Shown: positions 2,679-54,724, counted from the first letter of the stretch. The stretch: 64,000 nt of DNA from Escherichia phage Esco_phi_B-01 (OP292222.1); one strand, 5' to 3'. Program-made: numbers and translations. The notes: generated by a model not told the origin, from the sequence alone.

Positions 2679-3548
2679 ATGAACATTAAAACACGTAAAG
2701 AATACTCTATATACGACCATGACACGACTCGTCGTATCGCTATCGATCGGCTGGCCGACTTTGGTCATATTTGTAATGGTAATTATACTTATGGTGTAGG
2801 CCGTAAAGGGACTTATATTAGTTCTTTGAATGATTATTGCCGTAGCCCAGCTCATTTATTTGGTGCAACACTACGAGCTAATATTAAAGACCTCTTGGCT
2901 ACTGCAGGACGTATTTCTACGGTTCCTGTTAATATAAAGAATATTAATTTTACGGCTCGTAACCTAGTCATTAATATTCTGCCTGATGGTATTCAAGTTC
3001 GTTTCCGTCCTACTTCAAAAGGTAATAAGGCTCTTCGTGAAGCATTCGAAACCTTATTCAGAGAAGCAATGACTCGTATTAAGGCCGTAGAATCATATAA
3101 AGTTACAACCGATGAATATGCTGATTGTTCTGGACGGGCTGATGCAGTGTATTTTAATGTTAAACTAACTCGTGAATATCTTTTGTCTTATGCCCCTTAT
3201 CAACCCCAACAAAAGGACCCACAAATGGAACGTCGTATCTCTGCAGTATCATGTGACAGCGTAGGCCAGTATGCAGCCTATGACAAATTCAAAACCACAG
3301 CTGTGCCTAGTCCATTCAATTCAGAACCGTATCATTGGAAAATTAGACCTGATAATTCTTTGGTTGTTACTAACCCTACGATGAAACCTATCGAGAAGTA
3401 TCATGAGGACCACCTCCAGGAATCAATCCACCGTTTAAACGGTCAGATCGAAGATGAGAAAAAGAGTATTCAAGACGTATTGATTCGCATCAAGAATATG
3501 GAAATCCAGCGTGACAAGCTTCGCGCGGCAGTATTAGCTCTAAAATAA
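2679..3548 (+). CDS. hypothetical protein (approx 289 aa)
   Basis: ORF; start chosen at first ATG after upstream stop (track start 2655 overlaps previous gene). Confidence 0.5.
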   Translation: MNIKTRKEYSIYDHDTTRRIAIDRLADFGHICNGNYTYGVGRKGTYISSLNDYCRSPAHLFGATLRANIKDLLATAGRISTVPVNIKNINFTARNLVINILPDGIQVRFRPTSKGNKALREAFETLFREAMTRIKAVESYKVTTDEYADCSGRADAVYFNVKLTREYLLSYAPYQPQQKDPQMERRISAVSCDSVGQYAAYDKFKTTAVPSPFNSEPYHWKIRPDNSLVVTNPTMKPIEKYHEDHLQESIHRLNGQIEDEKKSIQDVLIRIKNMEIQRDKLRAAVLALK

Positions 3549-51791: not shown

Positions 51792-52136
51792 ATGTCTAAA
51801 GTATTTTTTGGTAATGCTAAGATTATGTTCTTTGAGCAACTCAGTCTTAAAGAGGCATTGGCAGCCTTCAATCAAGAACTGGTTACTGGGTTAGATTCAA
51901 AAACTATGGCAAGCGCGGATTTCGTTTTCGTTCAAGACCCGGATACAGGGTTTTATCGATTCATCAAATTCCGTATGAGCATGGACCCTGACTATCGTAG
52001 TGCTTACTATGTGAGTTACGAAAATGTTATCAAAGAATTACGTGATACCTATGGACGTGCTTTGAACCCACTGAATAAGGTATATAATGCGTCCTTTTAT
52101 ACGAGCGGATTTATTTTAGAACAGCTACAAAAATAG
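51792..52136 (+). CDS. hypothetical protein (114 aa)
   Basis: RBS tGAGGAAAttatcATG. Confidence 0.55.
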   Translation: MSKVFFGNAKIMFFEQLSLKEALAAFNQELVTGLDSKTMASADFVFVQDPDTGFYRFIKFRMSMDPDYRSAYYVSYENVIKELRDTYGRALNPLNKVYNASFYTSGFILEQLQK

Positions 52137-52164
52137 TTTACAACCTCGAGAATCATGTTATAAT
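52136..52164 (+). promoter_or_regulatory. early promoter (GTTTAC, 17 bp, TATAAT)
   Basis: motif. Confidence 0.6.
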
Positions 52165-52213
52165 GGTTCTCGTTGACTGGATAACAAAACATTAATCTAC
52201 TGAGGAAATTGAT

Positions 52214-52663
52214 ATGAATACTTATATGACTCGCGGTAACGTTCTGTCTGCTGGTGCTACTACTGTTGCTTATGTTAAGAATGGCGAATACCAAAATGGT
52301 AAGCCTTCTAAAGAAATCTCAGCTCAGCCAGGCTTCTACTTCTTTGTTAAAGGTGAAGCAGATTCTCGTGTCGTAGCCGCTCGCTTTTATGTCGGTAACC
52401 AACGTTCAGCTCAAGGTCTTGATGGTATTGTGGCTAACATCCGTAAGAAACGTTCTCAATCAGCTCGCACTATGGCAGTGAATGGTGTGGTGTATGAAGT
52501 TCTTTATGTGCCAGCTTCTAAAATGAAACCTCTGACTACAGGCTTTGGTAAAGGTCAAATTGCAATGGTTTTCACTCGCAATCATAGTTCAGACCTTCAG
52601 ACACTGGAAGAAATGAACCGTATGTTGGCCGATAACTTCAAATTCGTTCTGCAGGCTTACTAA
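52214..52663 (+). CDS. ndd: nucleoid disruption protein Ndd
   Basis: strong similarity recalled to T4 Ndd ([43 protein letters not shown]). Confidence 0.9.
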
Positions 52664-52750
52664 TGAGTAATTTCCATAACGAACATGTGATGCAATGGCA
52701 CCGTCATAATCTGAAATTAACCGGTGTCTTCGGACGCCCTTGAGGAAAAT

Positions 52751-52900
52751 ATGAATATTTTACAAGGTTTTGCTGCGGGTATTTGGACTTATCTAGGTAT
52801 TTGGACTATTACGACGGGTGAAACTTCGGTCATTTCTCAGGCCATTCCACAATTCATATTGGCATTTGTTCTGATTCTACAGGCCTTTACCAAAAAATGA
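52751..52900 (+). CDS. small membrane protein (49 aa), copy 1 of duplicated module
   Basis: hydrophobic ORF; RBS tGAGGAAAatATG preceded by UUCG hairpin. Confidence 0.45.
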   Translation: MNILQGFAAGIWTYLGIWTITTGETSVISQAIPQFILAFVLILQAFTKK

Positions 52901-53045
52901 TTAAGAAATCTTGGGTTACTCGGTAGCCCTTTCTTCTTTATTGGTAACACTGTATTACGGAGTAATTCCCATAACGAACATGTGATGCAGTTCTATCGTA
53001 ACAATCTTAAAACTAAAGGCGTCTTCGGACGCTAATGAGGAAAAT

Positions 53046-53207
53046 ATGATTATCATAGTTTTTATTGAACTTATTACGGCTATAGTCTGTTCGGTTTGCT
53101 TCTTTTTAGGTGTGTGGACCCCTGGTCCGGTATTCTTAAGTTTTCTGTTTATTGGCTGGGTTCTTTCTACTTTTGTCGGTTTACTTAAGATGATTAAAAA
53201 TGATTAA
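53046..53207 (+). CDS. small membrane protein (53 aa), copy 2 of duplicated module
   Basis: hydrophobic ORF; same leader architecture as copy 1. Confidence 0.45.
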   Translation: MIIIVFIELITAIVCSVCFFLGVWTPGPVFLSFLFIGWVLSTFVGLLKMIKND

Positions 53208-53340
53208 GAAAATCTTGGGCTACTCGGTAGCCCTTGCTGCTTTATTGGTAGCACTGTATTATGGAGTAATATTCGGTCTTATCCAAGTTGTGCTTTTTAT
53301 TTCCGATGTTATTATGGTTATTCATTCACTAGTATGGTAA
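53200..53340 (+). CDS. small membrane peptide (46 aa); counterpart in copy 1 is frameshifted
   Basis: [19 protein letters not shown]...; homologous DNA at 52897..52960 truncated after 9 codons. Confidence 0.35.
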   Translation: MIKKILGYSVALAALLVALYYGVIFGLIQVVLFISDVIMVIHSLVW

Positions 53341-53344
53341 AATT

Positions 53345-54724
53345 ATGGCTGATGTAATTGATACCCTTTTTAAACAATCCTTAGATGTTTACGATGATGC
53401 TTTTACTCGTCGTGACTTAAAAAGCATTATCGACAATGAAGCGCTGGCTTACGCAATGTATACTGTCGAAAACCGCGCCATTCCAAATATGATTGATGGC
53501 TTTAAACCCGTACAACGTTTTGTAGTTGCTCGTTGTCTTGATATGGCTCGTGGTAATAAAGAAAAATTCCACAAATTAGCTTCTATTGCAGGTGGTGTAG
53601 CCGACCTTGGATATCACCATGGTGAAGGCTCTGCTCAAGAAGCAGGTGCTCTGATGGCTAACACTTGGAACAACAACTTCCCACTGTTGGATGGCCAGGG
53701 TAACTTTGGTTCTCGATTGGTTCAAAAAGCAGCGGCATCTCGTTATATTTTTGCACGTATTGGAACTAATTTCGCAAAGGTTTATAAGGATACAGAATAT
53801 GCTCCGGTTCATGCGGATGTCGAACATAAGCCACCAGCTTTTTATCTGCCTATTATTCCTACTGTTCTTCTTAATGGTATTTCCGGTATTGCAACTGGTT
53901 ATGCAACTAATATTCTTCCTCATAGTTTTGATTCTGTTAAGAAAGCTGTATTGCAGGTTCTTCAAGAAAAACGCGTAACCAAGCCTAAGGTGGCTTATCC
54001 GGAATTCCGTGGTGATGTGGTTGAGATTGAACCAGGTAGTTATGAACTACGAGGCACGTATAAGTTCACATCTCGAACCCAAATGCATATCACAGAAATC
54101 CCGTACAAATACGACCGTGAAACGTATGTGGCCAAGGTATTAGACCCTCTAGAAGACAAAGGGTATATCACATATGATGACGATTGTGACGAGAATGGTT
54201 TCGGCTTCAAGGTTAAGATTCGTAAAGAATATGAATTGCCTACTGAAGAAAATAAGAAGCACGAAAAAATCATGAAGGACTTTGGGTTAATCGAACGCCG
54301 TTCACAAAACCTGACTGTCATTAATGAGAAAGGTAAACTTAAGGTTTACGAAGATGCAGTTGAACTGATTCGTGATTTCGTTGAGGTCCGTAAGACCTTT
54401 GTACAAAAACGTATTGATGGTAAAATCATCGAAACCGAAGAAGCTTTCAAACTGGCATTGGCTAAAGCCACCTTTATCAAAGATGTTATTGATGGAATTG
54501 TGGTTATCCAAGGTAAGACTCGTAAGGTTTTAACCGAAGAATTGGCTGGTAATAAAGTCTACGGCGAATATGCCGATAAACTCGTAGCAATGAATATTTT
54601 CCATATCACTTCCGATGAAGCTAAGAAACTGGCTTTGGAAGCCAAGGCTAAGAAAGAAGAGCACCAATACTGGAAAACCACTGATGTTGTAACTGAGTAT
54701 GTTAAAGATTTGGAGGCTCTATGA
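53345..54724 (+). CDS. 52: DNA topoisomerase II medium subunit gp52 (GyrA-like)
   Basis: similarity recalled to T4 gp52 N-terminus; IDGFKPVQRF GyrA-like motif. Confidence 0.9.
   Translation: MADVIDTLFKQSLDVYDDAFTRRDLKSIIDNEALAYAMYTVENRAIPNMIDGFKPVQRFVVARCLDMARGNKEKFHKLASIAGGVADLGYHHGEGSAQEAGALMANTWNNNFPLLDGQGNFGSRLVQKAAASRYIFARIGTNFAKVYKDTEYAPVHADVEHKPPAFYLPIIPTVLLNGISGIATGYATNILPHSFDSVKKAVLQVLQEKRVTKPKVAYPEFRGDVVEIEPGSYELRGTYKFTSRTQMHITEIPYKYDRETYVAKVLDPLEDKGYITYDDDCDENGFGFKVKIRKEYELPTEENKKHEKIMKDFGLIERRSQNLTVINEKGKLKVYEDAVELIRDFVEVRKTFVQKRIDGKIIETEEAFKLALAKATFIKDVIDGIVVIQGKTRKVLTEELAGNKVYGEYADKLVAMNIFHITSDEAKKLALEAKAKKEEHQYWKTTDVVTEYVKDLEAL

Follow-up and report, generated by a model that had tools for sequence, protein, structure and literature searches.

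The ndd-52 interval holds two versions of the stp–ac–52.1 cluster

A 64,000-nt stretch of the genome of Escherichia phage Esco_phi_B-01 (OP292222.1), hereafter called the window, with all coordinates counted from its first letter, carries a tandem repeat between ndd and the topoisomerase gene 52. The repeat at 52663-53344 consists of two head-to-tail units, 295 and 304 bp long. In T4, the ndd-52 interval contains stp (26 aa), followed by ac (51 aa) and then 52.1 (46 aa) (NC_000866, 165209-165585), and the repeat is formed by two versions of this early cluster joined head to tail (Table 1). Over positions 52214-53400 the sequence is 99.6-99.8% identical to Escherichia phages UP19 (99.8%), IME281 and EcWhh-1 and 96-97% identical to JS98 and NC-G, and on sequence the window can be assigned to a T4-type, JS98-like phage of the genus Dhakavirus.

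An earlier note on this DNA had described the repeat as a duplicated module of ~280 bp at the site where T4 carries ac and stp. The tandem arrangement of two units was confirmed: local alignment of unit 1 with unit 2 gave a score of 81, whereas 500 shuffles averaged 10.6 and did not exceed 15. The proposed unit size was too small, with actual periods of 295 and 304 bp, and although the locus does correspond to that of T4, the repeat itself comprises the whole of stp–ac–52.1. The repeat search returned two pairs, one of 101 nt (52658-52758 and 52953-53053, 78% identity, spacing 295) and one of 61 nt (52906-52966 and 53210-53270, 92% identity, spacing 304). All listed elements were found at their coordinates, namely the 21-mer CCATAACGAACATGTGATGCA (52674-52694 and 52969-52989, the only two places in the window), two UUCG hairpins, the ribosome binding site (RBS) GAGGAAAATATG (52742-52753 and 53037-53048) and membrane open reading frames (ORFs) of 49 and 53 aa. 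Missing from that description were the intact stp ORF at 52663-52743 and the scars at the junction of the units, a start-less stp and a truncated 52.1.

Table 1 Features of the ndd-52 interval in the window
Feature	Position	Strand	Evidence and remarks
Promoter-like site	52137..52164	+	sigma-70-type: TTTACA, 16 nt, TG-TATAAT; 11/12 consensus matches, extended -10 TG; upstream of ndd; consensus match alone
ndd (nucleoid disruption gene), 149 aa	52214..52663	+	Pfam PF06591, 228 bits; phrog_1102; annotated Ndd in IME281, JS98, JS10; left border
stp, unit 1, intact, 26 aa	52663..52743	+	PF08133, 55.3 bits (cut-off 25); phrog_6763, E 2e-19; annotated stp in JS98
C(UUCG)G hairpin 1, GGTGTCTTCGGACGCC	52723..52738	+	inside stp codons G-V-F-G-R; -9.2 kcal/mol; 3 nt upstream of ac RBS
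ac1, A-type membrane peptide, 49 aa, unit 1	52751..52900	+	phrog_2501, E 3.9e-20; annotated 'acridine resistance' in NC-G; RBS GAGG 52743-52746
52.1' scar, first 24 codons	52897..52966	+	86-92% identical to 5' end of intact 52.1; ends at junction
Junction microhomology GAGTAAT, 7 nt	52960..52966	+	common to 52.1 codons 22-24 and stp codons 1-3
stp' scar, unit 2, canonical-type codons 2-25 + stop	52961..53035	+	PF08133, 64.8 bits (cut-off 25); phrog_6763, E 1e-17
C(UUCG)G hairpin 2, GGCGTCTTCGGACGCT	53018..53033	+	inside stp' scar, before second RBS; -9.3 kcal/mol, z -3.1
ac2, B-type membrane peptide, 53 aa, unit 2	53046..53207	+	phrog_9347, E 1.1e-25; GVWTPGP turn between two hydrophobic segments
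52.1, intact, 46-aa membrane peptide	53200..53340	+	PF24129 (DUF7396), 78 bits (cut-off 27); 42/46 identical to T4 gp52.1
Gene 52, DNA topoisomerase II medium subunit, 459 aa	53345..54724	+	annotated gp52 / DNA topoisomerase II in IME281, JS98, JS10, T4; right border

A variant stp gene in unit 1 and a start-less stp in unit 2

The stp gene of unit 1 has its own ATG directly after ndd, overlapping the ndd stop codon (TAATG) as in T4 and JS10. Its product is identical to T4 Stp in 20 of 26 residues, the changes F12W, Y13H, N15H, T19L, K20T and Q26P defining a variant allele; within the N-terminal 18 residues, 15 are identical (F12W, Y13H, N15H). The same variant peptide is found, without any difference, in 39 phage records including the Gaprivervirus members VR7, VR25 and SP18, and represents a conserved allele class. 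At the nucleotide level the unit 1 stp is 93-95% identical to Gaprivervirus stp (VR7, VR25, UPEC07, EAWsc9) and 74-79% identical to unit 2 and JS10, while the neighbouring ndd is 73-75% identical to those Gaprivervirus phages and 97% identical to JS10. By these identities, the unit 1 stp is the Gaprivervirus allele. Both the 21-mer (encoding FHNEHVMQ) and the UUCG hairpin (encoding GVFGR) lie inside stp. Unlike the three membrane peptides of the locus, Stp is not strongly hydrophobic.

The second copy, stp', is identical to T4 Stp in 23 of 24 residues and to the intact stp of JS10 in 95% of the nucleotides. It has CGG where the ATG would be expected and no ATG, GTG or TTG upstream of codon 9, and is probably not translated. 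Among its residue changes, F4S is found in the copies of the window, IME281 and JS98, and the NC-G copy shows V9A and N15I. The N-terminal 18 residues of Stp are almost absolutely conserved (PMC3014915, citing Penner et al. 1995), and because the changes affect residues of this near-invariant region, we read stp' as a decaying sequence.

Stp-like peptides were also observed in unrelated siphoviruses of ~42-50 kb, i.e. in NC_009540 (Tls, 1865-1918, annotated stp), MH051334 (Ro145c2YLVW, 3452-3526) and MT682706 (vB_EcoS_FP). They are 61-80% identical, the weaker matches spanning the N-terminal 18 residues only. The peptide therefore moves between phage families.

Intact and truncated copies of 52.1

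The conserved stretch ATGATTAAGAAA(A)TCTTGGG begins at 52897 and again at 53200. In the second copy it encodes a 46-aa membrane peptide, in line with the earlier description, and this peptide is gp52.1. The first copy has one A fewer (AAGAAATC vs AAGAAAATC), so that the ATG frame ends after 9 codons with a stop at 52924-52926. This one-base loss had been recognized before, but the copy is also cut at codon 24 by the junction. The scar, 52.1', and the resident 52.1 disagree at 5 of ~70 sites, not counting one indel, and the scar carries three non-synonymous changes; in NC-G it has suffered an additional 31-bp deletion. Reduced to codons 1-24 and frameshifted, 52.1' is thus not a gene.

Whether the length of the A-run varies among isolates had been put forward as a check; an A3 state was present in all five phages with this junction, and the missing A reflects a mutation fixed long ago rather than a variable tract. 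Programmed or variable frameshifting at the A-run was rejected, given that the run is only 3-4 A long, that A3 is constant in the five phages and that the junction truncates the ORF anyway. The same one-A loss to AAGAAATC was seen in two of three independent 52.1' scars, those of the window clade and of contig ERZ27235398:k119_14484.

A terminator-like hairpin, GGGTTACTCGGTAGCCC followed by TTTCTTCTTT, is located at 52913-52929 within the 52.1' scar, where two G-to-T changes specific to the unit 1 copy give the T-rich tail. An evolved intrinsic terminator at this site is not supported, as the element is deleted in NC-G and its fold is no better than that of shuffled sequences (z -1.5).

Two unrelated cassettes in the ac slot

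The 49-aa ORF of unit 1, ac1, matches the same PHROG family as T4 Ac (E 2.2e-25 for the latter) and shares the motif TGETSV(I/F)SQA with the Ac proteins of KP179, EAWsc9 and others. By sequence and position, between stp and 52.1, it is assigned to the T4 Ac (acridine sensitivity) family. The 53-aa ORF of unit 2 was examined for membership in the Ac family as well, and matched phrog_9347 only. When a six-member alignment of A-type proteins was compared with a seven-member alignment of B-type proteins by hhalign, the probability was 5.5%. The B-type peptide thus shares the ac slot, not the Ac family. The grand average of hydropathicity (GRAVY) is 0.91 for the 49-aa ORF and 1.75 for the 53-aa ORF; both are strongly hydrophobic, as is the third membrane peptide.

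The interpretation of the two main ORFs as strongly diverged copies is not compatible with their separate families and the hhalign result; on present comparisons they are two alternative cassettes brought together rather than diverged paralogues. The flanks, which had been described as near-identical, are indeed conserved (78-92%), but they are in fact coding sequence of stp and 52.1. Their similarity reflects the strong conservation of the encoded Stp and gp52.1 between genera; RBS and hairpin form part of the flanks.

The distribution of the two types was followed by protein searches. The 53-aa ORF is 94% identical to the single-copy ORF of JS10, and about 56 Dhakavirus and Gaprivervirus records contain a B-type ORF at an identity of at least 85%. 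At an identity of at least 99%, ac1 occurs only in the five double-module phages, and its next relatives are found in a 931-bp metagenome contig (73%), itself a double, and in Klebsiella phages (49%). Beyond the clade itself, a search of a large protein collection with ac1 yielded the 73% relative only.

Two side observations concern ac1. An exact 12-nt direct repeat, GGTATTTGGACT, is present at 52778-52789 and 52796-52807 and encodes GIWT twice (GIWTYLGIWT). At 52890-52900, ac1 terminates as ...TKK*, with the TGA within ATGA as its stop. In ac2 and in four of the five other A-type Ac proteins the C-terminus is ND*, and the stop is the TAA of ATGATTAA. The different ending of ac1 may stem from an additional A in the A6 run, which would have shifted its last codons.

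The junction of the units

The junction was studied in an alignment of the window, IME281, JS98, NC-G and the single-module phage JS10. The 7-nt microhomology GAGTAAT is common to both parents and recurs in the window, in 52.1 at 53264-53270 (GGAGTAAT, 53263-53270) and in stp at 52665-52671 (TGAGTAAT, 52664-52671). To the left of the join the sequence is 52.1 up to ...TATTA(C/T)GGAGTAAT, and to the right it is stp from (AT)GAGTAAT TTCCATAAC... The position of the join is identical in the window, IME281, JS98 and NC-G, and for UP19 and EcWhh-1 a single unbroken alignment of 99.6-99.8% identity covers the entire stretch. An assembly artefact is unlikely, given that the repeat occurs in five independently sequenced phages.

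When unit 2 was compared with the single JS10 module, nucleotide identity was 95% for stp, 98% for the B-type gene and 96% for the 5' end of 52.1. Units 1 and 2 are not each other's closest relatives: unit 2 is nearest to JS10 and the stp of unit 1 nearest to Gaprivervirus.

Single and double modules in related phages

Related loci were collected with an Ndd alignment as anchor. In 30 such loci, the slot after stp in the ndd-52 interval was filled by either an A-type or a B-type ORF. A single module with variant stp, A-type ORF and 52.1 is present in Yersinia phage P8, and single modules with stp, B-type ORF and 52.1 in JS10, VR7 and UPEC07. The Gaprivervirus phages EAWsc9, TH40 and DCP80 carry a double module in the opposite order, B then A, arranged as stp – B – 52.1'(14 codons) – 18-nt filler – stp'(3' half) – A – 52.1. 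A further B-then-A double was found in the ENA metagenome contig ERZ27235398:k119_14484, which reads stp – B – 14 nt of 52.1 – A – 52.1. In coordinates of the extracted loci, these doubles span 1290-1960 in EAWsc9, 200-880 in DCP80 and 480-931 in the ENA contig.

Judged from their different scars, the same two cassette families were joined three independent times. In the phage collection (969 records, 981 places) at most 12 records contained two stp-like stretches; doubles are therefore rare.

The UUCG hairpins

Both hairpins have a 6-bp stem and a UUCG loop, with the consensus GG(C/U)GUC-UUCG-GACGC(C/U). Hairpins of the C(UUCG)G tetraloop type were first found in T4 mRNA (PMC4371310), and the stp gene of T4 has the same hairpin (-11.5 kcal/mol, z -2.9). 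Since it is equally present in single-module phages including T4, the hairpin is characteristic of stp rather than of the repeat. Five variants occurred among 28 instances, all of which keep six of six pairs; this pairing-compatible variation is suggestive of selection in a small sample of related sequences. The hairpin may stabilize the mRNA or help to keep the RBS accessible.

Origin of the repeat

The repeat is probably the result of one illegitimate crossover that joined an A-type module to a JS10-like B-type module. The crossover would have occurred on GAGTAAT, between codons 22-24 of 52.1 in the A-type module and codons 1-3 of stp in the JS10-like B-type module, and would have produced the order stp(variant) – Ac(A) – 52.1'(24 codons) / stp'(no ATG) – B – 52.1. 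Such an exchange necessarily removes the start of stp and the last 22 codons of 52.1; stp' and 52.1' are therefore recombination scars. The phage would thereby have gained a second membrane-peptide gene, and the variant Stp allele would now be expressed in place of the canonical one. In addition, losing one A would have silenced 52.1', and stp' would be drifting.

Several points weigh against this account. The ac1 allele was not found as a single module in protein searches, its 99% matches being confined to the five doubles. The same end product would result if a module had first been duplicated in situ and unit 1 had then been replaced. We infer that the array is expressed, that the promoter-like site is a promoter and that the scars are not translated. 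Finally, the ac1 frame is open past its UGA into stp' (52751-53035, 94 codons) in the window, IME281 and JS98, not in NC-G, so that a read-through product is conceivable in these three. As a conserved feature, an Ac–Stp' read-through fusion was rejected, the frame being broken in NC-G.

The duplication-and-replacement scenario deserves separate mention. Here, the resident JS10-type module would first have been duplicated, and the 3' half of stp together with the cassette of unit 1 would then have been replaced from a co-infecting phage with a variant stp and an A-type ac, using the 5' ends of stp and 52.1 as homologous arms. Such short arms are available, since all stp alleles nearly agree over their first 32 nt and the 5' end of 52.1 retains 82-96% identity between genera. 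The window and IME281 have a JS10-like ndd end and lack the 57-aa ORF of JS98 and NC-G, which shows that this border has seen additional exchanges. The differences between 52.1' and its intact counterpart fit a foreign origin or decay alike and do not decide the matter. As two events are invoked where one is enough, we regard this scenario as improbable.

A model in which one ancestral stp–ac–52.1 module was simply duplicated in situ, and the two ac copies then diverged rapidly between conserved flanks, would agree with the flank identities and with a head-to-tail array whose microhomology junction is typical of slipped or unequal duplication. However, the cassette ORFs fall into different PHROG families with no relation detectable by hhalign, unit 2 is 95-98% identical to the JS10 module while the unit 1 stp is nearer to another genus than to unit 2, and A-type and B-type each stand alone in the same slot in sister phages. 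Moreover, 150 nt that have become unrecognisable beside flanks of 92% identity would imply an implausible difference in rates. We regard simple duplication as still less probable than duplication with replacement.

That the internal fragments are functional, with stp' produced by read-through of the ac1 UGA or by re-initiation at Met10, and with hairpin plus RBS or the 52.1' hairpin acting as a regulatory cassette of the promoter(early)–stem-loop (PeSL) kind or as a terminator, is highly improbable: the open ac1–stp' frame of three genomes, the T-rich tail at 52913-52929 and the pairing-compatible changes of the UUCG hairpin would be in its favour, but the 31-bp deletion in NC-G both takes out the terminator-like hairpin and breaks the frame, stp' gathers non-synonymous changes at otherwise invariant residues, the units have no internal promoter-like site and hence not the make-up of PeSLs, no Rfam match was obtained, and the UUCG hairpin is equally found in single-module phages including T4.

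Borders and expression of the array

The promoter-like site upstream of ndd is likely the early promoter of an ndd-stp-ac-52.1-52 transcription unit, as predicted from its sequence. On the + strand within 52660-53340, i.e. in both units, no promoter-like site was found. Because such a site precedes ndd and none lies inside the units, the whole array is probably read as a single early transcript, and its likely products would be Ndd, variant Stp, Ac (A-type), the B-type peptide, gp52.1 and gp52. A search of 52000-53600 against Rfam at a permissive threshold gave no match, nor did any of the four small proteins match NCBIfam.

Both borders show variation among close relatives. At the left border, a 57-aa membrane ORF (phrog_5941, MRTFFVMGY...) lies between ndd and stp in JS98, NC-G, UPEC07 and KP179, at positions 752-925 (JS98, NC-G), 1135-1308 (UPEC07) and 755-910 (KP179) of the extracted loci. 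It is absent from the window (at 52663), IME281 and JS10, and is another optional cassette at the ndd/stp border. At the right border, the N-terminus of gp52 occurs in two forms, MADVIDTLFKQ...RRDLKSIIDNEA in the window, IME281 and JS10 and the shorter MELTSRGLKSIIDNEA in JS98, QL01-like phages and IME341.

Possible significance

T4 Stp inhibits type Ic restriction (EcoprrI, EcoR124I) and thereby unmasks the anticodon nuclease PrrC; loss-of-function (PrrC-activation-defective) mutations cluster at residues 4-14 (PMC3014915). T4 ac confers sensitivity to acriflavine on infection, and Ac acts possibly by blocking AcrAB-TolC (bioRxiv 10.1101/2025.06.30.662393; PMC13250531). By analogy with T4, corresponding roles of Stp and Ac may be assumed for the window phage.

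Selection for the stacking of A and B, together with a function of the variant Stp as an escape allele, is a speculative and rather unlikely extension of these data. As A and B have been joined at least three times with differing junctions, the combination may be under selection; if this is true, the two membrane peptides would act on different host targets, e.g. components of the envelope, of efflux or of defence. The escape-allele idea arises because the W12/H13/H15 changes fall in the residue 4-14/18 region of the PrrC-activation-defective mutations. If true, the variant Stp could block type Ic restriction without tripping PrrC, or target another restriction family.

The genes are known and the genomes of the clade are public; what is new is the structural variant of the cluster, which will not surprise a specialist. 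For annotation, the 26-aa stp is unannotated in the records of IME281 (RefSeq), NC-G and Yersinia phage P8, the JS98 RefSeq record is without the 53-aa ORF, and no double-module record among IME281, JS98 and NC-G marks either scar, so that a reader or a pipeline may mistake the repeat for a novel duplicated element. For evolution, the locus offers a single-nucleotide view of accessory-gene gain in T4-type phages. Here, stp and 52.1 bracket a polymorphic slot, and alternative cassettes stacked by illegitimate or unequal exchange leave pseudogene scars, the three lineages providing a small natural experiment. For function, Stp occurs in two allele classes, and the ac slot can be filled by either of two unrelated peptides. 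The current understanding is not challenged.

Comparison with known systems

The locus agrees with the T4 cluster in gene order, in the overlap of the ndd stop with the stp start, in the ac RBS GAGGAAAATATG and in the overlap of the cassette stop with the 52.1 start; likewise, Ac belongs to the same PHROG and the same C(UUCG)G hairpin is found in the last stp codons. Where T4 has one module, the window has a tandem of two; it additionally carries a B-type gene, one stp lacks its start codon and one 52.1 is truncated, and the presumably expressed Stp is the W12/H13/H15 variant. The Dhakavirus phage JS10 (stp – B-type ORF – 52.1) is similar in that its module is 95-98% identical to unit 2 in nucleotides and its ndd 97% identical; unlike the window, it keeps the equivalent of the stp' ATG and is without the 295-bp unit 1.

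In hyperplastic regions of T4-type phages, modular shuffling is mediated by PeSLs (Arbiol et al. 2010, PMC2839356; Comeau et al. 2014, PMC4122927). The locus shares with this system small non-essential early genes that are gained, lost or swapped via short conserved flanks, with alternative cassettes in one slot. However, the conserved sequences of the window are the coding genes stp and 52.1 rather than promoter-plus-terminator cassettes, and the junction lies on 7 nt of microhomology rather than being a product of homologous exchange, with no promoter-like site in the repeat. PeSLs are expected to place a strong sigma-70-like promoter and a terminator stem-loop at the cassette borders; the repeated stem-loop of the window lies inside stp and is not followed by a T-run.

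The closest parallels are the doubles of EAWsc9/TH40/DCP80 and of ERZ27235398:k119_14484. As in the window, both cassette families stand in tandem with remnants of 52.1 at the join (and a stp remnant in EAWsc9), whereas the order is B then A and the junctions are different ones: in EAWsc9 the join passes from 52.1 codon 14 through the 18-nt filler to the 3' half of stp, and in the ENA contig it keeps 14 nt of 52.1.

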